23,839 nucleotides of DNA from a virus (Duplodnaviria > Heunggongvirae > Uroviricota > Caudoviricetes): IMG/VR virus record IMGVR_UViG_2671180458_000011; one strand, 5' to 3'. The position numbers and the translations under genes are program-made. This document shows, one piece after another, positions 2,736-19,194 of the stretch. The notes under the pieces are model-generated. The model had not been told where the DNA came from. It saw only the letters and a list, made by a program, of their open reading frames with translations, and did no database searches. Numbering within the stretch: position 1 is the first letter of the stretch; each line of letters starts with the position of its first letter.

Positions 2736-4811
2736 ATGGCCCGAAATCTCAGAGCATCTCTGATAGTTGATTTGCTCGGCAATATCTCAGCCAAATCCCG
2801 CCAGTGGTCTCAGGAGCTGGGGGCATTCTCACGCTCCGGCCAGGCGGGGCTGGGTGGTCTGGGAAATGCGGCCCGCCGTGCCGGGCAGGAAACAGATGTA
2901 CTCGGAAGCAGGATGCAGCGCACGCTGGCCGGGGTGCGGGGCAGTATCCGCCATGTCACTTCTGATTTTGACCGTCTTCAGGGCAGTATTACCGGCACCA
3001 TCGGGCGGATCAGCAATCTTTACGGAATGCTGGCCGGTGGTGCTGCTGTATATGGCTTTAACCGGGGATTTATTCGCCCGGCAGCGGAGATGGAAACCTA
3101 TATGATTCGCCTGAACTCCCTTTACAAAGGGGATCGGGCGAAAACTGATGATGTCCGCAGGTGGGCAATACAGAATGCGAAGGAAACCACCTGGGGGCTG
3201 GCTGGCGTCATGCAGGAATATACGTCCAGTCTGGGCTTTGGTATGAGTGACAGGGAGGCCCGAAATTTTGTCACCATGCTTCAGGATCAGGGTGCCGTGG
3301 GCGGCTGGTCACTGTCCGATGCACAGGGGGCATCCCTGCAACTGAAACAGATGTATGCAAGAGGCAGTATTCAGGCAGCGGATGCAAATATTCTTGCCAC
3401 CTACGGCATTAATGCCTACCGCGTGCTGGCTGATCGTCTGGGTGTGGACCAGAAAGTGGTCAGAAAACTTGGTGAAAAAGGGCTGCTTGGGCCGGACAGT
3501 ATTCGCCTGTTATTTCAGACGCTGGCGGAACAGGCCAGGGGAGCACAAAAGGACGCAATGAATTCCTGGAGTGGCCTGACGGCCATGATGGGTGACGTCT
3601 GGGATCAGTTTGCCCGGGATGTGATGGACAGTGGGCCATTTGAAAAACTGAAGGGTAATCTCAGGGGATTTCTTTCATGGGTTGACAGTGCCAAATCTGA
3701 TGGCAGTTACCATTCCCTGGCGGAAAGCACGGCATCAGCCATGAACCAGGGCTTTGAGTATGCCCGTGATGCAGTGACAGGGTTTTATCAGGCGATCAGA
3801 AAGGTACGCGACACGCTTCAGGCTCTGCGGGATGCGGGCTATGGTGATGCGCTGGATCGCATTGGTCAGGGGGCACAGACCGCCGCGAAATACCTGCTGT
3901 ACATGTATCTCGCCACCCGTGCCCTGAAAATGGCGCGGGCTGTCGGAACGGGGATTATACGTCCGGGTGCTGCATTGCTGGGATACGGATTATCAGCGGC
4001 GGCCTTCCTGACCTCACCTTTCCGGCGCTCTCCTCCGGCCGGAACACCACCAGGCACATCTCAGGGACGAGGGCAACGTTTTATAAACTTTCTTACCGGG
4101 GTAAATCCGGCAGCCGTTCAGCCAGTACTTGTAACAAACTGGCCCACAGGAGGACTGTCCGGCACCGGCGCGACCGATACATCCTCAGGCGGACGTCAGG
4201 GGCGGGGCCGCAGGAAACGCGGACCGGGGCGCGGAAGACCGGTCACGCCTCCCCTGCCACCGTCCCCAGTGCCACCGTCTCCCTCTTCTGGTGGGGCAGG
4301 GTTCTGGGGGCGCATGATGGGGCGCGCCGGTGGGTTACTTTCGTCTGTCGGTAGCCGCATGGGGCTGGGGCGTTTCTCCGGCTTTTTCCGCAGTGCCGGT
4401 GGACTGGCCGGCCGGCTGGGTGGAGGTGCCCTGTGGGCTGGCGCGATGGCAGCCCCGGTTCTGCTGGATGGCAGCGCCAGTGCCACAGACAAGGGAGAAG
4501 CGGTCGGCTCTCTTGCAGGCAGTATTGCCGGTGGTGCGCTGGGGGCGGCAGCCGGACCTGTGGGGATTGCCATTGGTTCTACGGTGGGCAGCTATCTCGG
4601 TAACTATCTGGGGGGATGGCTGACTGAAGCCTGGCAGAAATTACGGGGCAGTGATGATGAAAGCAGTGGACAGGCGGTACAAAAAGCCTCTGCCCGTGTG
4701 GAGCTGGTTGCCCCGGAAGGGTGGCAGGCTCGCAGTATTGATATTGATGACACGTCCGGTCACGGACTGGATGTGAATGTCTGGAACGGAGGGAATTATG
4801 GCCTCTGGTGA
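2736..4811 (+). CDS. tail tape measure protein
   Basis: 691-aa ORF immediately after the chaperone pair; Gly/Ala-rich C-terminal low-complexity region (about 4020-4620) typical of tape measure proteins. Confidence 0.8.
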   Translation: MARNLRASLIVDLLGNISAKSRQWSQELGAFSRSGQAGLGGLGNAARRAGQETDVLGSRMQRTLAGVRGSIRHVTSDFDRLQGSITGTIGRISNLYGMLAGGAAVYGFNRGFIRPAAEMETYMIRLNSLYKGDRAKTDDVRRWAIQNAKETTWGLAGVMQEYTSSLGFGMSDREARNFVTMLQDQGAVGGWSLSDAQGASLQLKQMYARGSIQAADANILATYGINAYRVLADRLGVDQKVVRKLGEKGLLGPDSIRLLFQTLAEQARGAQKDAMNSWSGLTAMMGDVWDQFARDVMDSGPFEKLKGNLRGFLSWVDSAKSDGSYHSLAESTASAMNQGFEYARDAVTGFYQAIRKVRDTLQALRDAGYGDALDRIGQGAQTAAKYLLYMYLATRALKMARAVGTGIIRPGAALLGYGLSAAAFLTSPFRRSPPAGTPPGTSQGRGQRFINFLTGVNPAAVQPVLVTNWPTGGLSGTGATDTSSGGRQGRGRRKRGPGRGRPVTPPLPPSPVPPSPSSGGAGFWGRMMGRAGGLLSSVGSRMGLGRFSGFFRSAGGLAGRLGGGALWAGAMAAPVLLDGSASATDKGEAVGSLAGSIAGGALGAAAGPVGIAIGSTVGSYLGNYLGGWLTEAWQKLRGSDDESSGQAVQKASARVELVAPEGWQARSIDIDDTSGHGLDVNVWNGGNYGLW

Positions 4812-8289: not shown

Positions 8290-9371
8290 TGCCTTATCAG
8301 CCCTTACCACTGGCGCAACTGATCACACAGACACAACAGGATATCAGCCAGCGCCTGCCCGGTTCGCAGCCGGGCGTGAATGAAACCACCCTGAATGCCA
8401 TTGCGTATGCACTCGCGGGTCTGTCAGCACAGGAGCATGAACATCTGGCCTGGATCTCCCGGCAGATAATTCCGACAGAAGCTGATGAAGCCGAACTCCT
8501 GAAACACTGCGCATTCTGGGGTGTCATCCGTAAACCGGCTTCCCGCGCTGACGGACCGGTACAACTGATGCTGACCACGGATGCAGGGATCACGGAAGGC
8601 GTACTCCTTCAGCGAAGCGATGGTGTTGTGTACCGCATCACCGGCTCTGCGACCGGAAAAGCCGGAACACTGAATGTTAATGTGGAGGCGGAAAGTGCGG
8701 GGCGCGCTGGAAATACCCCGACCGGAACCCGCCTGTCCTTTATCACGCCACAGGCGGGCATCAACCAGACAGCCACGGTCACCGGCACGGGACTCACCGG
8801 TGGTGCGGATGTGGAAACGGTGCCGGAGTTGCTGTCCAGGCTGGTATTCCGGGTACAGAACCCGCCATCAGGGGGAACACAGTATGATTTTGAACGCTGG
8901 GCACGGGAAGTACCGGGCGTGACGCGGGCATGGTGTAAGCCTGAATGGCCTGAGGCGGGTAGTGTTGGTGTGACTTTTGTTCAGGATAATAACCCTGACA
9001 TTTTCCCCGGAGAAGGTGATGTGAAGCGGGTGGCGGATTATATCCGCAGTCATGATGATCCGGCGACGGGCCAGCCCGTTGGTCAGCCACTTGGGCCGAC
9101 AATCAGCGTGTTTAAGCTGACCAATAAGCCGGTGGCGTTTGAGATCAGGATTGTACCCAAAACGCCGGAAAATCAGGCTGCCGTAAAACAGGCATTAACG
9201 GACCTGCTTTATAACGAATCGCGGCCGGGTGGACTTGTATTGCCTTCATCATTCTGGCGGGCTGTTGCAGGGGTGAAAGGACTGGAGGATTTTGAAGTTC
9301 GCAGCCCGCTGAAGTCCGTGATGGCCGGAGATACAGAGTTGCTGACCGTGGGGGAAATCACATGGCTGTAA
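8286..9371 (+). CDS. baseplate J-like protein (Mu gp47-like)
   Basis: 361-aa ORF overlapping both neighbours; size and position of baseplate J family. Confidence 0.8.
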   Translation: MMPYQPLPLAQLITQTQQDISQRLPGSQPGVNETTLNAIAYALAGLSAQEHEHLAWISRQIIPTEADEAELLKHCAFWGVIRKPASRADGPVQLMLTTDAGITEGVLLQRSDGVVYRITGSATGKAGTLNVNVEAESAGRAGNTPTGTRLSFITPQAGINQTATVTGTGLTGGADVETVPELLSRLVFRVQNPPSGGTQYDFERWAREVPGVTRAWCKPEWPEAGSVGVTFVQDNNPDIFPGEGDVKRVADYIRSHDDPATGQPVGQPLGPTISVFKLTNKPVAFEIRIVPKTPENQAAVKQALTDLLYNESRPGGLVLPSSFWRAVAGVKGLEDFEVRSPLKSVMAGDTELLTVGEITWL

Positions 9372-9922
9372 CCCTGACCCCGCATCAGCGTGCCCTGTTG
9401 CAGTTGCTGCCTGACGGGCTGGCATGGGATAAGCGGCCGTCATCCGTTCTTGCGGCTTTGTGCCTGGGCCTCAGTCATTCCACGGAGCGTGTTTCCTGGA
9501 CCGGTAACCAGATGCTGGCAGAACGTTTTCCTGATTCATCCCGTCTGCTGCTGGAAGACTGGGAGCGTTATCTGGGGTTACCGGAATGTGATATGACCGG
9601 CGCAACCATTCAGGAGCGTCAGCGTTATGCCGGGAATAAATACCGGATGAAACCCTCTCTTAACCGTGAATTTTATATCCGGTTTGCGGCAGAGTTTGGT
9701 TATGAAATAGATATTCAGCCATCACCGGATTCACAGTGGGTCAGTATTGTCACGATTAACAGTGAAACCGGCTACCGGAATATGAATGTGCTGGATGATA
9801 TTCTCACCCCGCTGCGTATTTATGAGGGTGGTGCGCTGGAATGTATTCTGAACCGTTATAAGCCTGCATGGCAGACGTTTATTTACGTGTATGCAAACAG
9901 CCATGAAGAGGAGACTATTTAA
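9362..9922 (+). CDS. tail protein gp48-like (DUF2313/YmfQ-like)
   Basis: 186-aa ORF directly upstream of the tail fiber gene; its stop overlaps the tail fiber ATG (TAATG at 9920-9924). Confidence 0.7.
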   Translation: MAVTLTPHQRALLQLLPDGLAWDKRPSSVLAALCLGLSHSTERVSWTGNQMLAERFPDSSRLLLEDWERYLGLPECDMTGATIQERQRYAGNKYRMKPSLNREFYIRFAAEFGYEIDIQPSPDSQWVSIVTINSETGYRNMNVLDDILTPLRIYEGGALECILNRYKPAWQTFIYVYANSHEEETI

Positions 9923-10833
9923 TGTTTCATGTTGATAATAATTCCGGCGTGGCGAATATGCCTGCGCTGGCACCGGCGCAGAGTAATACCACCACCTGGT
10001 TTACCGAAGGTGACGGACAAAAAGGTATCAGCTGGATTGGTCAGGACTGGCTGAATATTCTCCAGGCCGAACTGCTGAATATTCTGGCTGAAGCCAGTAT
10101 TCAGCCGGATAAGGCGCAGTTAAACCAGCTTACGCTGTCCATTAAAGCCATTATCGCTGCGAATGCCTTTTCCCGGAAAAACAACCTGAAAGAAATTGCT
10201 GATGCCGGTGCGGAAGCCCAGCGTCTTGCCCGTAGTTATCTTGGTCTTGGGGCGCTTGCCACAAAAAACAGTCTTGGTCCCGGTGACGTTAATGCTCTGG
10301 CGAAGGATCAGAACCTTGCCGACCTGGAGAATGCGGGAACCGCCCGTAATAATCTGGATGTTTACAGCAAAAGCGAAGGTGATAACCGTTACCTGCGCAG
10401 GGAGCAGAACGGCGCAGACATTCCGGATAAAGGCGCTTTTATCGATAACGTCGGTTTACGGGAAACGGTAAATAAGGCTGCTGATGCCCTGCCATCGGGT
10501 GGAACCGCCGTGGCAGCAAACAGACTCGCCACCCCAAGAAATATTAATGGCGTTCCTTTTGACGGAACGCAGGATATCAACATCACGTCAGGAATGACGC
10601 AGTCAACCGCAGATGGCCGGTATGTACAGAATGTTCAGCTTGGAGCACAGAGCTATCATTCACCCGGAGGCAATGAAATATCATGGAATTACAGCGCACC
10701 TTCCGGTTGTATGCTTTCCGGTATTAACGTGCAGGAAACCGGCTCCCGGTCTGCGGACAATATCGGTGGGGTCTATTATCGCCCGGTTCAGATTTATATT
10801 AATAATGCCTGGAGAACGGTAAGTTCAGTGTAA
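9922..10833 (+). CDS. tail fiber protein: constant part (9922 to about 10451) fused to the currently in-frame variable part Sv (about 10465-10833)
   Basis: 303-aa ORF; a gix-like crossover site lies inside it at 10439-10464; its C-terminal tail resembles that of the inverted cassette on the opposite strand. Confidence 0.8.
   Translation: MFHVDNNSGVANMPALAPAQSNTTTWFTEGDGQKGISWIGQDWLNILQAELLNILAEASIQPDKAQLNQLTLSIKAIIAANAFSRKNNLKEIADAGAEAQRLARSYLGLGALATKNSLGPGDVNALAKDQNLADLENAGTARNNLDVYSKSEGDNRYLRREQNGADIPDKGAFIDNVGLRETVNKAADALPSGGTAVAANRLATPRNINGVPFDGTQDINITSGMTQSTADGRYVQNVQLGAQSYHSPGGNEISWNYSAPSGCMLSGINVQETGSRSADNIGGVYYRPVQIYINNAWRTVSSV
10439..10464 (+). other. gix-like recombination site, left (inside tail fiber gene)
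   Basis: TTATCGATAACGTCGGTTTACGGGAA: 26-bp site with two imperfectly symmetric 12-bp halves around a 2-bp core, closely resembling the Mu gix / Hin hix architecture. Confidence 0.7.
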
Positions 10834-10843
10834 ACCACAGAAA

Positions 10844-10862
10844 AGGGTGCTGAATGCACCCT
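10844..10862. terminator. stem-loop between convergent tail fiber and tfa genes
   Basis: 7-bp stem AGGGTGC/GCACCCT with 5-nt loop, between tail fiber stop (10833) and tfa stop (10868); T-rich stretch follows on the + strand. Confidence 0.35.
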
Positions 10863-10867
10863 CTGAA

Positions 10868-11440
10868 TTATTCCGGTTTTTCCGGCCAGGGAATCGCCTG
10901 GTAATGCCCCTCACTGGCAATATCATTAAAGTGCATTTCTTTAAGCTGTCGGATATACGCCATCCAGCGCGTCAGCTGTAATTTATTTTCATCGCTAATC
11001 ATGTCCAGTTTTAATTCTGTTTTCCAGTCATCCACGGTTTCGTTGGCTTCCTGGAGCAGCGATGAGCGACGCTTTTCAGCAACCGTCTTCCAGTTTACCG
11101 GCACCTTTGATATCAGGCCATCAGAAAACTGCCAGTTACCGTCAATATTCACACCTTCCGGCAGTTCGTCCACTTCAACAACAGTAAAACCTGCCGGATA
11201 TAAAGCAGAGACATCTTCAGCAACAGAGCAGATAATACCCGTTACAGGCGAAATACAGAGTTTGTATTTCTTTGTGAAAAGCGGGATAGATTCATAAAAA
11301 TCCCTTCCGTCCTCACTCTGGAAATACTGAACATCCTCACCATAGGGTTTGTCTTTCGGGTAATATCGTTTGACATTAATCAGTTGCATAAACATCACCA
11401 TGTAAATCAATGATAAAAACAGGAATAATACTATCGCCAT
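10868..11440 (-). CDS. tail fiber assembly protein (Tfa/U'-like), paired with the inverted Sv' cassette
   Basis: C-terminus ends in the Tfa-type motif (IPWPEKPE). The first 17 codons are strongly hydrophobic, so the real start may be the internal ATG at 11389. Confidence 0.65.
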   Translation of the reverse strand: MAIVLFLFLSLIYMVMFMQLINVKRYYPKDKPYGEDVQYFQSEDGRDFYESIPLFTKKYKLCISPVTGIICSVAEDVSALYPAGFTVVEVDELPEGVNIDGNWQFSDGLISKVPVNWKTVAEKRRSSLLQEANETVDDWKTELKLDMISDENKLQLTRWMAYIRQLKEMHFNDIASEGHYQAIPWPEKPE

Positions 11441-11510
11441 ATACAGGCAATGCTTGTCTGAAATAACGCATATTTCAGATGCTGGCTGCTGTGTGCTATG
11501 CCCCCGTTAA

Positions 11511-11877
11511 TTAAATACTTGCAGCGGATACCCAATGCCCATTAATACAATATTGTATCTGTCTGTAATAAACACGGTCATCACCACCACGCATTTCCCA
11601 GTCTCCGTTAGTCTTAAAACCGGTAATCACATTTCCTGATGACAGGGAGTAATTATATTCCAGTCCGCCGCTTAATGCCTGCGCTCCCAGTCTTACCCCT
11701 GTAACATAACGCTGATTGGCCGTTGATTCCGGCATTCCTGACGTAATGTTTATATCCTGCGTGCCGTCAAAGGCGACACCATTGATTCTGCGGGCATTTG
11801 CCAGCCTGCTTGCTGCAACAGCCGTACCGTTTGATGGCAGGGCATTCGCGGCCCTGTTTACAGTATCCCGTAAACCG
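11511..11877 (-). CDS. alternative tail fiber C-terminal cassette (Sv'), promoterless in the current orientation
   Basis: Minus-strand frame open from the right gix-like site to the stop at 11511; C-terminus resembles that of the + strand fiber. Confidence 0.6.
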
Positions 11878-11890
11878 AGGTTTCAGGGAT
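11865..11890 (-). other. gix-like recombination site, right (inverted relative to left site)
   Basis: ATCCCGTAAACCGAGGTTTCAGGGAT; the 12-mer CCCGTAAACCGA is the exact reverse complement of TCGGTTTACGGG in the left site; sits just upstream of gin as in Mu. Confidence 0.7.
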
Positions 11891-11944
11891 GCCGTATATC
11901 TGCTTTAAAAGGCCTTTCCACCTCTTTTTAAGGAAGGTAAATAC

Positions 11945-12505
11945 ATGCTGATTGGCTATATACGCGTATCAACAAATGACCAGAACACAGGTTTACAAAG
12001 AAATGCGCTGGAATGTGCAGGATGTGAGCAGATTTTTGAAGACAAAATGAGTGGTAAAACGACACAGCGGCCGGGACTGAAGCGGGCACTGAAGAAACTA
12101 AAACCCGGTGACACGCTGATGGTCTGGAAACTGGACAGGCTGGGGCGCAGTATGCGCCACCTTGTTGCGCTGACAGATGAATTACAGCAACAGGGGATAA
12201 ATTTTCGTAGTCTTACTGACAACATTGATACGTCAACCCCCATGGGGCGCTTCTTTTTTCACATAATGGGTGCGCTGGCAGAAATGGAGCGTGAATTAAT
12301 TGTCGAACGGACACGGGCTGGTCTTGCAGCTGCCCGTGAAAGGGGACGAACCGGCGGCAGACCCCGCCGTCTCACGCAGGAACAATACGAGCAGGTCGGG
12401 CGTTTACTGGCCGGGGGTGTCAGTCGAAGACAGGTGGCACTTATTTTTGATATCGGTCTTTCAACCCTTTATCGTTATTATCCTGCGAGCGTTTCGGAAA
12501 AATAA
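11945..12505 (+). CDS. gin: serine DNA invertase (Gin/Pin/Hin family)
   Basis: 186-aa protein beginning MLIGYIRVSTNDQNTGLQRNALECAGCEQIFEDK, near-identical in pattern to Mu Gin including the catalytic-serine N-terminal domain and C-terminal HTH; AAGGAAGG Shine-Dalgarno upstream. Confidence 0.9.
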   Translation: MLIGYIRVSTNDQNTGLQRNALECAGCEQIFEDKMSGKTTQRPGLKRALKKLKPGDTLMVWKLDRLGRSMRHLVALTDELQQQGINFRSLTDNIDTSTPMGRFFFHIMGALAEMERELIVERTRAGLAAARERGRTGGRPRRLTQEQYEQVGRLLAGGVSRRQVALIFDIGLSTLYRYYPASVSEK

Positions 12506-12604
12506 GACGCTCTCTTTGTTGGGCCTTTACTGAATTAACGCAAAATGGCGTTTATCGGTCTGTGGATATGATAATTCAGTTTATTCAGGAACAGGCTGAT
12601 TATT

Positions 12605-14644
12605 ATGACGTCCAAATGGGTTCAACTATCATCAATGCCCGGAAACTTTACTGTTAAAGTTTCCGGTGGTACAGCGGCATTTCTTGAGGCTCCCTTTCCT
12701 CCGGCCGAAACAAAAGGAGGAATGACATTTGCTGACTGTCTCATCAGTTTTAATACACGGGATTGCCTGTGGGTAAGGCCAGTATCCGGTGATCCGAGTG
12801 TGGAAATTACCGGAGCGGGTATTGGTGCGGTCATTCCGTTAAGTGCTGATGTTGCCGGTACTGCTGAACCGTCAGACTGGGATAATGCTGAAACACATAC
12901 CCGTCCGTCAGGAAATGAAACTGCTTCCAGCTCCCCTTCCTGGTATTACGTGGTGGTTCTTGCTGGTCAGTCAAACGGTATGGCTTACGGTGAAGGTCTG
13001 CCACTGCCGGAGACATATGACCGCCCCGAACCGCGTATTATGCAGTTAGCCCGTCGCAGTACAGTCACGCCGGGAGGTAAAGCCTGTCAGTATAACGACA
13101 TCATTCTGGCCGACCACTGTCTGCATGATGTGCAGGATATGAGTGGAAAAAATCACCCGAAAGCGGATGTGGCTAAAGGGCAATATGGCACCGTGGGTCA
13201 GGGGCTTCACATTGCCAAAAAACTGCTGCCGTTTATTCCGGCAGATGCGGGGATTCTGCTGGTTCCCTGCTGCCGTGGTGGTTCTGCATTCACGGCGGGT
13301 GCTGACGGCACGTACAGTGACAGCACGGGTGCTTCAGAGGACTCAGCCCGCTGGGGTGTGGATAAGCCGCTGTATAAGGACTTAATCAGCCGGACAAAAG
13401 CGGCACTGGCGAAGAACCCGAAAAACCGCCTGCTTGCTGTGGTGTGGATGCAGGGCGAGTTTGATATTGATGCGAAGCCGACGGAGCATTCTGCGCTGTT
13501 TCTGGCGATGGTGGAAAAATTCCGCGCAGACCTGGCTGAACAGGCGGAACAGTGTACCGGTGGCAGTGCTGCTGGCGTTCCGTGGATTTGTGGTGATACC
13601 ACGTATTTCTGGAAACAGAAAAACGAACAGGCATACCAGGCAATCTATGACGGCTACAAAAATAAAACAGATAAAAACATTCATTTCGTCCCATTAATGA
13701 CAGATGAAAATGGCGCGAATGTACCCACCAACAATCCGGCAGAAGACCCGGATATTGAATCCATTGGTTATTACGGCTCAACGTGGCGTAACAGTGCCGC
13801 CACCTGGACATCTGCGGACCGGGCCAGCCATTTCAGTTCATGGGCACGTCGTGGGATTATTTCCGACCGTCTGGCCACGGCAGTTCTGACTCATGCGGGG
13901 CGAACCACAGTAAAAGCCGATGTTCCATCTTCTGAAACTGAAGCACCAGTGCCGTCACCTTCAGAAACTGAAGCAGTAACCACAACACTGCTGTCTTACC
14001 GTGTCAGTGAGTCAGAAGGAAATCTGAAAGCCCAGGGCTGGGAGCCGGCTGGCGGTAAAGCTGAAATTATCAGTGATGCAGGAGGCACAGGTGGTAAGGC
14101 AATGAAACTGACCAAGGAAACAGGTAAATCATCCTGGTATCTGGATCATGATGCCGGTACTGGTGCTGAACTGCTGAAAAATGGTGGTTTAATCAGTTGT
14201 CGTTTTAAAGTACCGGGCGACCTGGTGGCAAACCAGTATGTCATGGCGCTTTACTGGCCGGTTTCCTCTCTGCCGCAGGGTGTCACCCTGACAGGGGATG
14301 CAGGGAATAATCTGCTGGCATCGTTCTACATCCAGACAGACGCAAAAGACCTGAATGTGATGTACCACAATGCAAAAGTGGCAACAAATAACCAGAAACT
14401 GGGAACCTTTGGTGCATTTGATAATGAATGGCATACGCTGGCCTTCCGTTTTGCAGGAAATAACAGCCTTCAGGTTATTCCGGTTATTGATGGTCAGGAT
14501 GGTGCCGCGTTTACCCTGACGCAGTCACCAGTAGGAACTTTCCCGGTGGACAAACTCCGCGTAACGGATATCACAAAAAATGCAACTTACCCGGTGCTGA
14601 TTGACAGCATTGTGGTGGAAGTGAAAAAAGCGGTAACAGAATAA
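12605..14644 (+). CDS. SGNH/SASA-type esterase with C-terminal lectin-like domain (NanS-p-like sialate O-acetylesterase candidate)
   Basis: 679 aa; GQSNG block at about residue 120, WMQGEFD block and a D-x-x-x-H block consistent with SASA/DUF303 esterases; Pro/Ser/Thr/Glu-rich linker then about 230-aa beta-rich domain. Family call from motif recognition only. Confidence 0.5.
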   Translation: MTSKWVQLSSMPGNFTVKVSGGTAAFLEAPFPPAETKGGMTFADCLISFNTRDCLWVRPVSGDPSVEITGAGIGAVIPLSADVAGTAEPSDWDNAETHTRPSGNETASSSPSWYYVVVLAGQSNGMAYGEGLPLPETYDRPEPRIMQLARRSTVTPGGKACQYNDIILADHCLHDVQDMSGKNHPKADVAKGQYGTVGQGLHIAKKLLPFIPADAGILLVPCCRGGSAFTAGADGTYSDSTGASEDSARWGVDKPLYKDLISRTKAALAKNPKNRLLAVVWMQGEFDIDAKPTEHSALFLAMVEKFRADLAEQAEQCTGGSAAGVPWICGDTTYFWKQKNEQAYQAIYDGYKNKTDKNIHFVPLMTDENGANVPTNNPAEDPDIESIGYYGSTWRNSAATWTSADRASHFSSWARRGIISDRLATAVLTHAGRTTVKADVPSSETEAPVPSPSETEAVTTTLLSYRVSESEGNLKAQGWEPAGGKAEIISDAGGTGGKAMKLTKETGKSSWYLDHDAGTGAELLKNGGLISCRFKVPGDLVANQYVMALYWPVSSLPQGVTLTGDAGNNLLASFYIQTDAKDLNVMYHNAKVATNNQKLGTFGAFDNEWHTLAFRFAGNNSLQVIPVIDGQDGAAFTLTQSPVGTFPVDKLRVTDITKNATYPVLIDSIVVEVKKAVTE

Positions 14645-14649
14645 AAAAA

Positions 14650-14678
14650 TCCCGCCGGTCATGATATGGCTGGCGGGA
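14650..14678. terminator. stem-loop after the esterase gene; canonical intrinsic terminator only when read on the minus strand
   Basis: Stem TCCCGCC/GGCGGGA (extendable with wobble pairs) with A7 run immediately 5' on the + strand, which is a U-tract 3' of the hairpin on the minus strand. Confidence 0.4.
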
Positions 14679-14790
14679 GCTACCTAACCCATAAAGGAAA
14701 ATAAAAATACTCCCGAAGGAGTGGTTATCAGTCGCTTCGATGTTTTTACCCGATAACGAATTATGTAGTCAATATCAAAGGTAAGGTTAT

Positions 14791-14973
14791 ATGACATTCG
14801 TTCATACAATGCTGCTTTATTTCTGCGCAGTGGTCAGTGCGTTATATCTGGTGAGCGGCGGTTATAAGGTCATCAGAAATTATATTCGCCGTAAAATTGA
14901 TGATGCGGCAGCTGAAAAACTCAGTAAAACAGCACAGGCACCGTCATCCCCAAACGACCCGACCCCGCTCTGA
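14791..14973 (+). CDS. small predicted membrane protein (60 aa), unknown function
   Basis: Single N-terminal hydrophobic helix then charged tail; AAAGGTAAGG Shine-Dalgarno-like sequence upstream; AT-rich foreign-looking DNA. Confidence 0.4.
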   Translation: MTFVHTMLLYFCAVVSALYLVSGGYKVIRNYIRRKIDDAAAEKLSKTAQAPSSPNDPTPL

Positions 14974-15008
14974 TAACGGGGCAATATACCTGCAAAAGGA
15001 GAATATTC

Positions 15009-15254
15009 ATGCCAGAGATTAAAGGCACGGTTACTGAAGAGCTTGTCAAACAGGCACTTTATTCTGAAGAAGTGAACCGCGTGCTGAAGGCGCAGGTTCG
15101 CAAGGATTTTGAGGCACAAATCGACGCATATGTTGATGAAGTGCTGGCCCGAATGGTTGGCCATTCTCCGGCTGAAAACAGCACGGAGAATGAGCCTCAA
15201 GCCGTAGAGCAACCAGAGCCGGTTCAGCCCGGAACTGACGGTACTATGATGTAA
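15009..15254 (+). CDS. small acidic protein (81 aa), unknown function
   Basis: AAAGGAGA Shine-Dalgarno 7 nt upstream of ATG; helical-looking N-terminal half and acidic Pro/Glu-rich tail; followed by a hairpin. Confidence 0.45.
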   Translation: MPEIKGTVTEELVKQALYSEEVNRVLKAQVRKDFEAQIDAYVDEVLARMVGHSPAENSTENEPQAVEQPEPVQPGTDGTMM

Positions 15255-15263
15255 CAATACCGA

Positions 15264-15283
15264 CCGGCAGGTTTCCCTGCCGG
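15264..15283. terminator. hairpin between convergent small genes
   Basis: CCGGCAGG-TTTC-CCTGCCGG, 8-bp stem with 4-nt loop, between the + gene ending 15254 and the minus gene ending 15293. Confidence 0.4.
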
Positions 15284-15292
15284 GTGAATTTG

Positions 15293-15463
15293 TTAATGCA
15301 CGTTTTGTGTACTTTCCCTCCGGGGAGAACAGGCAGGACATATCAGCATCCTGAAACAGGACGCATTTTGGGGTTTGTATGTCTTGCCATTTTGAGATCG
15401 AGAACGGCGATAGATGAGCTGTAAGGGAGTCTTACAGGCAGGGCAAACAGGCTCTTTATCCAT
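15293..15463 (-). CDS. small zinc-ribbon protein (56 aa, two CPAC motifs), unknown function
   Basis: Minus-strand ATG at 15463 preceded by AGGAGA with 8-nt spacing; Cys-Pro-Ala-Cys at residues 7-10 and 41-44. The ORF track's longer version (to 15487) starts upstream of the Shine-Dalgarno sequence. Confidence 0.4.
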   Translation of the reverse strand: MDKEPVCPACKTPLQLIYRRSRSQNGKTYKPQNASCFRMLICPACSPRRESTQNVH

Positions 15464-15565
15464 GATAAAGATCTCCTTTTTATGCATCTCTGCTTTACAG
15501 GAGACCGGGGAATATCATAGGATACGCCACGAGCTCGAAGTAAAGCATTGATGCGAATTTGTTCC

Positions 15566-15595
15566 AGGTCCAGATAGCTGTAACTATCTGGACCT
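15566..15595. promoter_or_regulatory. perfect 12-bp inverted repeat with 6-bp spacer (candidate operator or hairpin)
   Basis: AGGTCCAGATAG ctgtaa CTATCTGGACCT in the divergent intergenic region between the zinc-ribbon gene and com. Confidence 0.4.
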
Positions 15596-15643
15596 CCCTT
15601 TATGTAGTATCCTGTTGATTTGAAACATACTACATATACGCGC

Positions 15644-15821
15644 GATCCTACCTTCACTGTATAAAAAGTCAATAAAATGATCATTTTATGATCGTTTTCA
15701 CCACCTAAGTCTTCGTTTTCTTTAAGTAAATAATCACCGCCCTGAATCATTGTTGATGACTTTTCAATCTATTTGTTGTATCAATTAAACAAATCGAATC
15801 GATCGTTTTTGTCGATCGATT
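15644..15821 (+). promoter_or_regulatory. GATC-dense mom-operon control region (candidate Dam-methylation-sensitive promoter region)
   Basis: Five GATC sites in about 175 bp (15644, 15679, 15690, 15801, 15814), including a 9-bp inverted repeat AATCGATCG n7 CGATCGATT at 15797-15821 just upstream of com. Confidence 0.45.
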
Positions 15822-15864
15822 GCATGAGAAAGGCATCAACAACAAAGCAGGAGGTTATGCGGCC

Positions 15865-16065
15865 ATGTATCGAAACATACGGTGCCGACACTGCAATAAG
15901 CTACTGGCACGGGCCAGTTTCAGTTATCTGGAAGTAAAATGTCCGCGCTGTAAAACCCTCAATCAAATCACATCTCCGAGCGCCACAGAGCACCCCACAT
16001 ACACAAGGAAATCCTGTCGTGGGGAACAGAAAGCAAGCCACATCCCGTATCATCAGCACGCCTGA
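15865..16065 (+). CDS. com: Com-like zinc-finger translational activator of mom
   Basis: [14 protein letters not shown]...VKCPRCKTL...EHPT matches the Mu Com four-cysteine pattern; AGGAGG Shine-Dalgarno 10 nt upstream of ATG 15865 (ORF track starts at TTG 15820); 3' end overlaps the next gene as in Mu. Confidence 0.7.
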
Positions 16066-16756
16066 ACTTATTCGCTATAACGACAATATCGTTGGTTATG
16101 GCTCCCGTGAGTTGCGGGTTGAGACAATAAGTTGCTGGCTGGCCAGACTGGTCATCGTCAATAAACATTACAGCCACCGTTTCGTAAATAACTCCTACCT
16201 TCATCTGGGCATATTTTCAGAACGGGAGCTGGTTGGCGTAATGCAATGGGGCTATGCCCTTAATCCAAACAGTGGTGCACGCGTCGTAACGGGCACGCGG
16301 AACCGTGAATATATGGAGCTTAACCGGTTATGGCTGCATGACTGTATGCCGAGAAACTCCGAATCAAGGGCAATCAGTTACGCGCTCAAGCTAATCAGGC
16401 AGCTTTATCCGCAGGTACAGTGGGTTCAGTCGTTTGCAGATGAGCGTTGTGGCTGTCTTGGTGTCGTGTATCAGGCAAGCAATTTTGATTATGTAGGCAG
16501 CCACGAATCAACATTCTATGAACTTGATGGCGAGTGGTATCACGAGATTTGCAGGAATGCCATTAAACGAGGCGGACAGCGAGGTGAACATCTGAGGGCT
16601 AATATCGACAGAGCCAGTGTTCATAAATTCCGTCAGTTTCGTTACATCCGGTTTCTGAACAAGAGGGCCAGAAAACGCCTCAACACAAAGCTATTCAAAG
16701 TCCAGCCTTACCCAAAACCACAAACAGTTAAAACTGGTTTAAAAGAGAGTGAGTGA
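16019..16756 (+). CDS. mom: Mom-like DNA modification protein
   Basis: 245-aa ORF (GTG start) beginning inside the 3' end of com, the characteristic com-mom overlap; last gene before the prophage right end as in Mu. Called from context, not from remembered sequence. Confidence 0.6.
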
Positions 16757-18044
16757 ACGCTTAAAAACTCATTCTAAAACCCAAAAGAAAAGCGCCGATT
16801 TAGTATCAAATAAGTTGCGTATCGGCGTTTTTCAGCGGTATCAAATGAAATGCAAATCGGTATCAAAAAAATCGCCGCGCTATAATAAGCAGCTCAGAGC
16901 TGCCAATAAAGTCACTAACGTGCTGGATACAGAACTCACATCAGCCCGTGCCGCGGAACGTAAGGCCCAGCAAACTGCACAACAAGGTATGAAGGAAGAA
17001 GAGCGAGAGTTGTGCGCGTCACATTTTCCAGTGGTGACTTTGGAGCAATTGCCTGACATTCGCGATTTAGAACGTCAACATGAGCGGGGAATTCAGCATG
17101 AAATTGAAAGAGTTAAAGCTGAACTACATCGACTGAACATTGAGTTGACCAAACGTATGTCTGAAGCCAAACGTGTGGATACCGGGGCGCTCGTTGAGGC
17201 AGGGGCTGATTTGGACGATATTACTGTTTATTTACAGCGTTTGCAGGAACTGACCGAAGAAGCCCTGCCGGAAAAGCTCAATCGCTTCCTTGATTATCTT
17301 AACCGTTCATCCGATGACGGCGTAACACAACTGCTTAGCCATATTGAGCATGAGGTGCTGGTGATTGAGGAGCGCCTCAATGAACTCAATGAAACTATGT
17401 TCAGGGTTGATTTTCAGCCGTATCGCTACCTGCGTCTGGATACCAAAAAAGTTGTCCATGAAAGCCTGCGCACGCTTGAAAAAGCACAGCGTCAGCTAAA
17501 TGCCGCCCGATTTGTTGATGATAATGGCGAGAGCTATTATAAGGCTTTGCAGATACTGGTGGCGCAATTGCGGGATGCTTGTGAACGAAACCGTACCCTG
17601 GGAGCAAAAGCGCTACTGGATCCCCGTTTTCGACTGGAGTTCGCCGTATCGGTGATGGATCGTCAGAGCGGAAATGTGATTGAGTCTCGTACCGGCTCAC
17701 AGGGTGGTAGCGGTGGAGAAAAAGAGATTATCGCTTCTTACGTGTTAACAGCTTCACTTAGCTACGCACTTTGTCCTGCGGGGAGCCGTTATCCGCTTTT
17801 CGGTACCATTATCCTTGATGAAGCCTTCTCCCGCAGTTCTCATGCGGTGGCGGGTAGGATCATTGCCGCGCTTAGAGAATTTGGCTTACATGCAGTATTT
17901 ATCACCCCCAATAAGGAAATGCGCCTGCTGCGTGACCATACTCGTTCGGCGATTGTTGTCCACCGGCGCGGTCAGAATTCCAATATGGCTTCTCTGAGCT
18001 GGGAAGAGCTTGAACGACACTACCAGCGACGGGGGAACGCGTAG
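16749..18044 (+). pseudogene. jetC 3' fragment: C-terminal half of a Wadjet SMC-like ATPase, truncated by the prophage
   Basis: Contains signature-like GSGGEKE, Walker B IILDEAF and an H-loop His but no Walker A; the first 48 codons or so (16749-16896) are a Lys-rich read-through of phage-end sequence; coiled-coil-like sequence begins about 16897. Confidence 0.6.
16800..16896 (+). repeat. prophage right-end repeat array (candidate transposase-binding sites) ending in CA
   Basis: Three direct copies of GTATCAAA at 16803, 16838 and 16860 plus ATCGGCG/ATCGCCG motifs; GCGTTTTTC at 16825-16833 resembles part of the Mu R-end; terminal CA at 16895-16896. Confidence 0.4.
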
Positions 18045-18045
18045 G

Positions 18046-19194
18046 ATGTATTCCCCAGATGAATTGCGTGAAAAGCTTGCCCGGCAGTGGGATAGCGCAA
18101 AACTTCGGGCTGAACGCTTACTGTCCCCCGGTAACTGGCCGCTCTGCCTGCCTATTGGTAAACCTTCCACGAAAATATTTGCAGAGCAGACTCAGCGCGT
18201 TTTGCAGCACGTACAGCGATGGAGGCAAGTTGCGGTTGGGCACGTGGAATGGGAAGCGGTGAGTTATCGGGCAAGTGATACACCAGTATTAATGCCGTTG
18301 CGCTGGATTCTGAATAGCCCTTCTGAGTGGATCAACGCCGCTGCGGATCCGGTTGTGAGCCGGGAATTTCGCTTGCTGGAAGGAATTATTGAACAAGTTA
18401 ATCCCATTTTTCACCCGCTGTTGGTAAAGCATCGCTCTCTCTGGCGGCACAAAGATCCGCAGGGCGTCATCAGCGCCGCCACGCTGGCCTGCCGATTAGA
18501 GCCGGGCTGCGCAAAAGGGCTGCCGTTAAGATTGCTTTCCGGGCAAGGAGTGGATACCAAATTTATCGAGAATAATATTTCGTTATTAACCCGACTGTTA
18601 GACGTGCGGTTTTCAGGAGAAGCCAGCGAGCAGGGATTAACAACTTTTCTTGATGCTTTTGATGAGTCCAGTCACTGGGTTTTAGTTGTACCATTATCAC
18701 CCGGCTTACTTCCTTTTAAAAAATGCCGGGTAACAACGGCGGAACTGGCAGAAACAACATTACCTGCGTCGCAAGTACTGGTGGTTGAAAATGAGCAGTG
18801 TCTGCATCATCTTCCAGCATTATCTGACACTATCGCGATTTTAGGCTGTGGCCTGGACGTGCAATGGCTATCCAGTTCTGTTCTGGATGAAAAACGCGTT
18901 GCTTATTGGGGGGACATGGATAGCTGGGGATTACTGATGCTGGCGAGAGCCAGGCGCTGTCGTCCGACGCTTGATGCCCTGCTCATGAACCGTGAGTTGT
19001 TTGAGCAGTATGCCAGTCATAGCGCCGTTCCAGAACCGGTCATAGCGAAGGAAGCTGTACCTGATGGCTTGCTTAACGAAGAGGCCGATTTTTATCGCTA
19101 CTTAACCCGTTTACCGTGTGGTCGTCTGGAGCAGGAGTTTTTGCCAGTGGGGATTGCGGAAGAGGTGCTTCTCAGGTGGGGAAAAGAGAGTTAA
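18046..19194 (+). CDS. JetD-like Toprim-domain protein (Wadjet subunit D)
   Basis: ATG at 18046 two nt after the jetC stop (ORF track starts at TTG 18010); about 382 aa with VVENE and YWGDMD motifs typical of the DUF2220 Toprim-like domain. Confidence 0.65.
   Translation: MYSPDELREKLARQWDSAKLRAERLLSPGNWPLCLPIGKPSTKIFAEQTQRVLQHVQRWRQVAVGHVEWEAVSYRASDTPVLMPLRWILNSPSEWINAAADPVVSREFRLLEGIIEQVNPIFHPLLVKHRSLWRHKDPQGVISAATLACRLEPGCAKGLPLRLLSGQGVDTKFIENNISLLTRLLDVRFSGEASEQGLTTFLDAFDESSHWVLVVPLSPGLLPFKKCRVTTAELAETTLPASQVLVVENEQCLHHLPALSDTIAILGCGLDVQWLSSSVLDEKRVAYWGDMDSWGLLMLARARRCRPTLDALLMNRELFEQYASHSAVPEPVIAKEAVPDGLLNEEADFYRYLTRLPCGRLEQEFLPVGIAEEVLLRWGKES

Follow-up and report, generated by a model that had tools for sequence, protein, structure and literature searches.

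Do the GATC sites that crowd the DNA upstream of com and mom in a Mu-like prophage of Escherichia coli place these genes under the control of Dam methylation, and which of the sites matter? The regulation of mom in bacteriophage Mu, with its many layers of control, is a textbook case. Mom protects phage DNA against many restriction enzymes, and its expression at the wrong time is toxic; Com is a translational activator of mom. The promoter of the Mu operon, Pmom, is governed by Dam and OxyR (PMC3378877).

The DNA analysed here, a stretch of 23,839 nucleotides that we call the window, contains five GATC sites in a short region just before com. The original prediction, made from the letters of this stretch, was that the logic of Mu is preserved at this locus, with Dam methylation of the GATC sites relieving OxyR binding. 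Our literature search found no methylome or expression data on the mom region of this prophage. Here we compare the region with known OxyR/Dam systems and with other com-mom loci. We conclude, with a probability of roughly two in three, that the two GATC sites nearest com form part of the 3' half-site of an OxyR operator with two half-sites (15780-15816), a rearranged member of the Dam/OxyR class that governs com-mom, and that the three distal sites are a separate matter.

Results

A com-mom module at the right end of a Mu-like prophage

The window covers the late region and the right end of a transposable Mu-like E. coli prophage. The right end lies near 16884: identity with other copies collapses just past ...CGCGCTATA. 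The prophage is closely similar to those of E. coli O157:H7 (99.9% identity to strain F7508 over 15300-16800), and we take it to be of the Sp18 type described in O157 Sakai. Related copies occur in 233 of the 5,426 complete E. coli genomes searched, many of them genomes of Shiga-toxin-producing strains such as O157:H7. Most copies are 95-99% identical and they occupy differing chromosomal sites; the same element has distinct insertion sites in F7508, FRIK2533 and M3. In the window, the right end adjoins an SbcC/JetC-like gene that is truncated at its 5' end and has a Walker B domain; behind it lies an intact JetD gene (DUF3322 and JetD_C; 16885-19194). This arrangement suggests that jetC of a Wadjet anti-plasmid defence system was the insertion site of the Mu-like prophage.

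The two genes at issue had been named com and mom in the original prediction, and profile searches uphold both names. On the plus strand, com (15865-16065) encodes a 66-amino-acid zinc-ribbon protein that matches Pfam PF10122 (Zn_ribbon_Com, E = 2e-12) and the PHROG family 'gpCom' and is 46% identical to Mu Com. The mom gene (16019-16756, plus strand) encodes a DNA adenine modification enzyme (Pfam PF25680, Mom, E = 4.5e-77) and shares 71% DNA identity with Mu mom. [quoted passage not shown] A Shine-Dalgarno sequence read from the DNA, AGGAGG (15849-15854, plus strand), precedes com and is invariant in its relatives with the exception of locus L055. Unlike in Mu, where gin lies upstream, the upstream gene here is variable cargo.

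In some E. coli prophages (L170, positions 3074-4280; Stx phages LC727881 and LC727895), a gene for a DNA cytosine methyltransferase takes the place of mom behind com and the operator described below, and homology to the window stops near 16032. Other Mu-like phages are also known to have methyltransferases in place of mom behind com (PMC3299994).

GATC density and the inverted repeat

The five GATC sites begin at 15644, 15679, 15690, 15801 and 15814, a span of 174 bp. Fewer than one had been expected by chance, and this figure is correct: either the window-wide rate or the local base composition predicts 0.55-0.56 GATC per 175 bp. No other 175 bp in the window is as dense. When the 75 GATC sites of the window are placed at random, at least five fall within some 175-bp stretch in 10.5% of simulations, so the density by itself is only weakly significant at the window level. 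Triples of GATC within 50 bp occur three times in the window, and the distal trio (15644, 15679 and 15690; 15644-15693) is therefore ordinary. GATC sites are unevenly spread along the window: a desert at 9147-15395, made up of tail-fibre and cargo DNA, has 3 GATC in 6.25 kb where base composition predicts 24, and the first 9.1 kb has 52 against 34 expected.

The 9-bp inverted repeat that had been reported around the last two sites is present, with arms AATCGATCG (15797-15805) and CGATCGATT (15813-15821) that are 100% complementary across a 7-nt gap. It ends 43 bp before the com ATG (15865). The repeat consists of two direct copies of CGATCG, and because CGATCG is palindromic, two direct copies automatically form an inverted repeat; only the outer AAT/ATT extends the dyad. 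Could the repeat act in RNA? We rejected this idea: neither 15790-15880 (z = -1.6) nor 15846-15960 (z = -1.4) folds better than shuffled sequences, and no gene lies upstream of the terminator-like sequence called on the minus strand.

The proximal pair resembles known OxyR operators

The proximal pair (15801-15804 and 15814-15817) is spaced 13 bp from start to start and supplies the proposed Dam-methylated switch positions. The surrounding region reads ATCAATTAAACAAATCGAATCGATCGTTTTTGTCGATCGATT. In the Mu mom region the sequence is GATCGAATCAATTAAATCGATCGGTAATACAGATCGATTATGCCCCAATAACC, where the GATCs are 18 and 13 bp apart, and in E. coli K-12 agn43 (flu) it is GATCAATATCTATTTTATCGATCGTTTATATCGATCGAT, where they are 19 and 13 bp apart. 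MAFFT places 15780-15816 of the window, 1657-1693 of Mu (L001) and 416-452 of agn43 (L030) in the same columns without gaps, so that the 13-bp pairs coincide. An alignment made by eye, with a 9-bp insertion relative to Mu, was discarded because MAFFT favours the ungapped one. The window pair lies in ATCGATCG...GATCGATT, column for column with Mu GATC2 and GATC3. GATC1 of Mu has no counterpart: its column reads AATT in the window, with TATC 22 bp upstream, so that the operator has two GATCs where Mu has three. In agn43, too, there is a third GATC, 19 bp upstream, that the window lacks.

The 23-bp OxyR core of agn43, ATCGATCGTTTATATCGATCGAT, is matched by 15798-15820 at 21 of 23 positions (ATCGATCGTTT.T.TCGATCGAT); the runner-up in the window reaches 14 of 23. 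Window and agn43 share the 15-7-15 layout of half-sites, with the 13-bp GATC pair in the gene-proximal one, and the inverted repeat 15797-15821 is the dyad of one OxyR dimer half-site.

We scored the region against the OxyR consensus ATAGnTnnnAnCTAT-n7-ATAGnTnnnAnCTAT, which has 20 specified positions (quoted in PMC2909390). The 37 bp at 15780-15816, ATCAATTAAACAAAT-CGAATCG-ATCGTTTTTGTCGAT, agree at 13 of them, a moderate match of 6 of 10 in the half-site 15780-15794 and 7 of 10 in the half-site 15802-15816, whose ends are flanked by the two GATCs. The same consensus gives 13 of 20 for the Mu site and 14 of 20 for that of agn43, and half-sites that function in experiments match as few as 7-8 of 10 consensus positions (PMC4856963). 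Scores of at least 13 occur at only four positions in the 23.8-kb window, all within 15749-15780. This region is AT-rich; in dinucleotide shuffles of 15740-15830, the probability of a maximum of at least 13 was 0.021 and of at least 14 was 0.0022, and four such hits arose in 0 of 5000 shuffles.

One of the four positions is a second consensus match at 15749-15785 (14 of 20), which contains no GATC, starts 31 bp upstream of the match at 15780 and overlaps it by 6 bp. It may be an alternative position for OxyR, and it is weaker in the M3 lineage, where a base-by-base reading of L004 gives 5 of 10 for the upstream half-site. In all, overlapping half-site matches lie upstream at 15749, 15767 and 15771.

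The window pair also resembles two other switches. In P22 gtr, 13-bp GATC pairs each lie within one OxyR half-site, and methylation abolishes binding (PMC2909390). Like Salmonella/P22 gtr and opvAB, the window has a 13-bp GATC pair inside a single half-site and extra overlapping half-site matches upstream. The differences are in number: two GATC pairs are spread over three half-sites in gtr, and four GATCs over four half-sites in opvAB, layouts that give reciprocal methylation patterns, whereas the window has one pair and its upstream consensus match is free of GATC.

In IMG/VR, 59 viral contigs contain the exact half-site ATCGATCG-n7-CGATCGAT, several of them with a third GATC about 18-19 bp away. 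Among the contigs inspected (L130, L157, L135/L161, L122, L117 and L136), the half-site and third GATC lie directly upstream of a gene for a D12-class N6-adenine DNA methyltransferase, of a lambdoid side-tail-fibre gene (phage_tail_N domain) and of other ORFs. That the triad precedes mom, the com-linked cytosine methyltransferase, the D12 adenine methyltransferase and the side tail fibre gene suggests that it may be a portable OxyR/Dam operator, placed before phage genes for DNA modification and host range.

GATC pairs are conserved upstream of com

The original prediction named, as a refutation, a GATC density that is not conserved in homologous mom regions; it proves to be conserved. From genomes and viral contigs we gathered 88 com-mom loci with 56 distinct upstream regions; these are related sequences rather than independent samples. 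In 50 of the 56, at least two GATC lie between -130 and -36 relative to the com ATG, as a pair or a triad, and the 13-bp pair is found in 34. The mean number of GATC per com-upstream region is 2.23, a 9-fold enrichment over the background of 0.24 in the rest of the same loci. OxyR consensus scores of at least 12 are reached in 82% of com-upstream regions and in 3.1% of control windows.

The sites are arranged in several ways. The Mu type has GATC-18-GATC-13-GATC with the last site at -78 from the com ATG, and a two-site type has GATC-18-GATC at -98 and -80. In short types, GATC-31-GATC-13-GATC ends at -52 to -54. The window type has a pair 13 bp apart at -64 and -51. In the 29 loci of this type (11 distinct sequences), the pair, the repeat and the block ATTTGTTGTATCAATT...TCGATCGTTTTTGTCGATC are invariant; over the next 16 bp the sequence varies among the 11 variants and the length is constant. 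The operator is identical in a strain where the cytosine methyltransferase replaces mom.

This pattern bears on another explanation of the repeat, namely that it binds a regulator of the phage itself or is a non-functional relic of a decaying prophage, its GATCs having no regulatory meaning. Dyad symmetry would suit many dimeric regulators, and there are signs of decay nearby: the candidate -10 hexamer of the window has lost its -7 T, and the adjacent minus-strand ORF is frameshifted. Yet the repeat stays invariant while its flanks vary, and it is nearly identical to the OxyR core of the host gene agn43, a likeness that no phage factor needs. It is unlike this phage's own late-activator box, and the same GATC triad stands ahead of unrelated phage genes (among them the D12 methyltransferase and tail fibre genes). 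We regard this explanation as improbable.

Four com-upstream regions have no GATC at all, and the only one with a named source genome comes from a non-enteric bacterium, Candidatus Endobugula sertula. The GATC-poor modules L011, L014, L104 and L108 share another upstream element, at about -110 to -40, that reads ...CCACAGTGAG..CACTGTGAACCA..AAGGCT.CC.... The hosts of L011 and L014 are non-enteric (Neptunomonas japonica, Candidatus Endobugula sertula), and L104 and L108 are viral contigs. This element may serve as a different means of regulation where Dam/OxyR control is unused.

The distal trio appears to belong to neighbouring cargo

The distal trio is seen only in lineages with the same cargo, and in the lineage of M3 and L035 clear homology to the window begins only near 15770 (weaker back to about 15756), with other cargo upstream. 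On the minus strand, a promoter-like site, TTGACT-16-TAGGAT (15672 to 15645), coincides with the trio: GATC 15644 abuts the TAGGAT -10 hexamer, and 15679 and 15690 lie just upstream of the -35. The half-site formed around 15679/15690 scores 4 of 10 on the OxyR consensus by our own count. By these comparisons the trio appears to lie outside the com-mom operator, in a neighbouring, poorly conserved cargo segment with its own minus-strand promoter-like site.

Might all five sites nevertheless form one Dam-dependent control region for com-mom, the trio adding binding of OxyR, SeqA or another methylation-sensitive protein? They are packed into 174 bp beside a 6.2-kb GATC-poor stretch, and GATCGTTTT recurs at 15690 and 15801. 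The comparison with relatives speaks against it. The trio is missing in the M3/L035 lineage, where the operator and com-mom are identical, and GATC 15644 is lost in L032 and in L170, the latter retaining TAGGAT. The spacings within the trio are 35 and 11 bp, not 18 and 13, and its match to OxyR is poor; similar GATC triples occur elsewhere in the window by chance, and the trio coincides with the minus-strand site described above. A single five-site region is therefore very hard to defend. The original prediction of Mu-type Dam/OxyR logic holds for the proximal pair, given its alignment with Mu GATC2/3, the 21 of 23 matches to the agn43 core and the OxyR consensus score, and fails for the five sites as one unit. 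The cluster is best described as composite, and its 13-bp pair is the part that comparison with relatives marks as meaningful.

The surrounding cargo has several features of its own. A minus-strand ORF of 135/154 amino acids runs over the distal GATCs. We rejected it as a real gene: its length ranges from 56 to 154 amino acids through frameshifts among near-identical relatives, and it is frameshifted in the window. It has no Pfam match, its sole match being a PHROG family of unknown function, and it probably does not represent a stable coding sequence. On the same strand, a zinc-ribbon ORF of 56-64 amino acids (CPAC...CPAC), which ends at 15293 and has a good Shine-Dalgarno sequence, may be a real gene. 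A plus-strand promoter-like site (15494-15523) faces a strong hairpin with a T-run (15566-15605), and the two could give rise to a short antisense RNA, about 70 nt long. Another conserved hairpin lies at 15601-15636. In FRIK2533 the strong hairpin is swapped for a different sequence that still forms a hairpin.

The late-activator box is absent upstream of com

In Mu, the 78 bp between the last GATC and the com ATG hold the C site TTATGCCCCAATAA, a T6 run and the -10 hexamer TAAGAT (PMC4461284; PMC3378877). The corresponding distance in the window is 51 bp, and from the repeat to the Shine-Dalgarno sequence there are just 27 bp. The original prediction noted that the spacing differs from that of Mu, which is right and understates the change: the operator lies nearer to com by 27 bp, and the C box is missing. 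The prophage does encode a late activator of the Mor family. Its box, TCCGCAAARCCYGCC, common to the Plys and PI promoters, lies 31 nt before a -10 of TAYGCT, and a scan allowing up to 3 mismatches found no such box upstream of com. Nor is there a C site or T6 run between the window operator and the -10. With 51 bp in place of 78 and no TCCGCAAARCCYGCC box, the Mu order of OxyR site, C site and promoter is not preserved.

We considered and rejected Mu-like control of com-mom by the late activator: its own box is absent, and a 10-nt partial match, CCGCCCTGAA (15737-15746), varies in close relatives and is absent in M3. In M3 (L004, 2360-2410), a late-activator half box, CCGCAAAGC, faces a divergent minus-strand cargo gene beside com, so this cargo gene, rather than com-mom, may be late-activated.

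Where is the com-mom promoter?

Our favoured candidate promoter is TTGTCG (15809-15814), a 19-bp spacer and CATCAA (15834-15839) on the plus strand (15809-15839 overall). The candidate -35 overlaps GATC 15814, and the predicted start at about 15846 would put the two GATCs near -45 and -32, almost where gtr has GATC3 and GATC4 (-46 and -33; PMC2909390). In CATCAA the conserved -7 T is missing, and the score of the promoter is weak, at chance level. In L032 and L042 the hexamer at this position is TATCAT, and TTGTCG-19-TATCAT scores 8.2 bits. Window-type loci have [C/T]ATCA[A/T] 20 bp past the last GATC. Six short-architecture relatives (L005, L056-58, L112 and L163) have near-consensus hexamers, TAGATT, TATACT, TATAGT or TATCAT, 11-13 bp past the last GATC and about 41 nt before the com ATG.

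Scoring of promoters by position weights was indecisive. It recovers the agn43 promoter (12 bits) but misses Mu Pmom and gives no clear site in the window, an outcome to be expected if these promoters are deliberately weak. Like Mu, the window would have a poor promoter with a 19-bp spacer. Unlike that of Mu, at about -90 to -54 (an estimate from the -10 hexamer), the window operator probably overlaps the -35 region of its weak promoter.

An arrangement like that of agn43 would keep the Dam/OxyR logic and change the geometry. The strong agn43 promoter, TTGTCC-17-TAGAAT (12 bits), has its operator downstream of the start site: the annotated 5' end of agn43 lies at the first GATC (isrC, L030 418, is the first base of GATC1), which puts the operator at +1 to +36. 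In the window, an alternative candidate, ATGACT-17-TATCAA (15756-15784, plus strand; ATGACA-17-TATCAA in M3), would start transcription near 15791, and an OxyR roadblock would then lie at about +11 to +28. All 11 variants and both cargo lineages keep ATGAC and TATCAA unchanged, while the 10 bp between them vary at constant length; in conservation this candidate equals the favoured one. Its score, however, is 3.7 bits, again at chance level, and the leader that it predicts has no significant RNA structure (z = -1.6). The distant short-architecture relatives, moreover, have their clear -10 hexamers downstream of the pair, not upstream. We think it unlikely, if worth keeping in mind, that the operator lies downstream of the promoter.

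The sign of regulation has to be weighed as well. With a start near 15846, the centres of the half-sites fall at about -59 and -37, and at opvAB, whose expression requires OxyR, the half-site nearer the promoter has its centre at -43 (PMC4856963). OxyR bound at 15780-15816 might then activate the weak promoter, and Dam methylation would turn com-mom off, the opposite of Mu. A poor -35 and the missing C box would make an activator sensible. But the homologous sites of Mu and agn43 are repressive, and so is the gtr half-site with GATCs at -46 and -33 (PMC2909390). An activating role is, in our judgement, improbable.

Discussion

We infer that com-mom is most likely repressed by OxyR and that Dam methylation relieves this repression. 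In this model, an OxyR tetramer would bind when the GATC pair is unmethylated, and probably also when it is hemimethylated. The adenines open to methylation lie within two recognition elements, ATCG and CGAT, one at each end of the half-site. The OxyR site would overlap the -35 and upstream region of the weak sigma-70 promoter (TTGTCG-19-CATCAA), and bound OxyR would therefore block com-mom transcription. Full Dam methylation of 15801 and 15814 would exclude OxyR and permit transcription, and Com would then allow mom to be translated, as in Mu. The operator would thus have shifted onto the core promoter, with no late-activator box between the two.

Two points count against this model. Without a late-activator box, the model does not explain what silences a toxic gene in dam+ lysogens. 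In addition, a site at about -66 to -30 is also where activating OxyR sits, and the sign could be the opposite.

There is a more radical possibility: com-mom may have lost the promoter that in Mu depends on the late activator and be ruled only by an OxyR-Dam switch of the agn43/gtr kind on its core promoter, making Mom phase-variable in lysogens and not strictly late lytic. We put this forward as speculation with the odds well against it. If it is true, most lysogens would be OFF, with an unmethylated pair protected by OxyR, and a minority would be ON, with Mom-modified DNA. Heritable ON and OFF states are a property of agn43, a chromosomal adhesin gene in a cryptic prophage.

Control by Dam and OxyR was already known, and the result is incremental and not a new principle; what is new is the rearranged layout. 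An operator that appears to sit on the promoter, with no activator box, bears on what to predict for mom of the prophage in lysogens: that it is silent, confined to the lytic phase or phase-variable. Across dozens of enterobacterial com-mom modules, the Dam/OxyR layer is, at the level of sequence, the conserved core, and the activator layer and the position of the operator relative to the promoter are the parts that vary.
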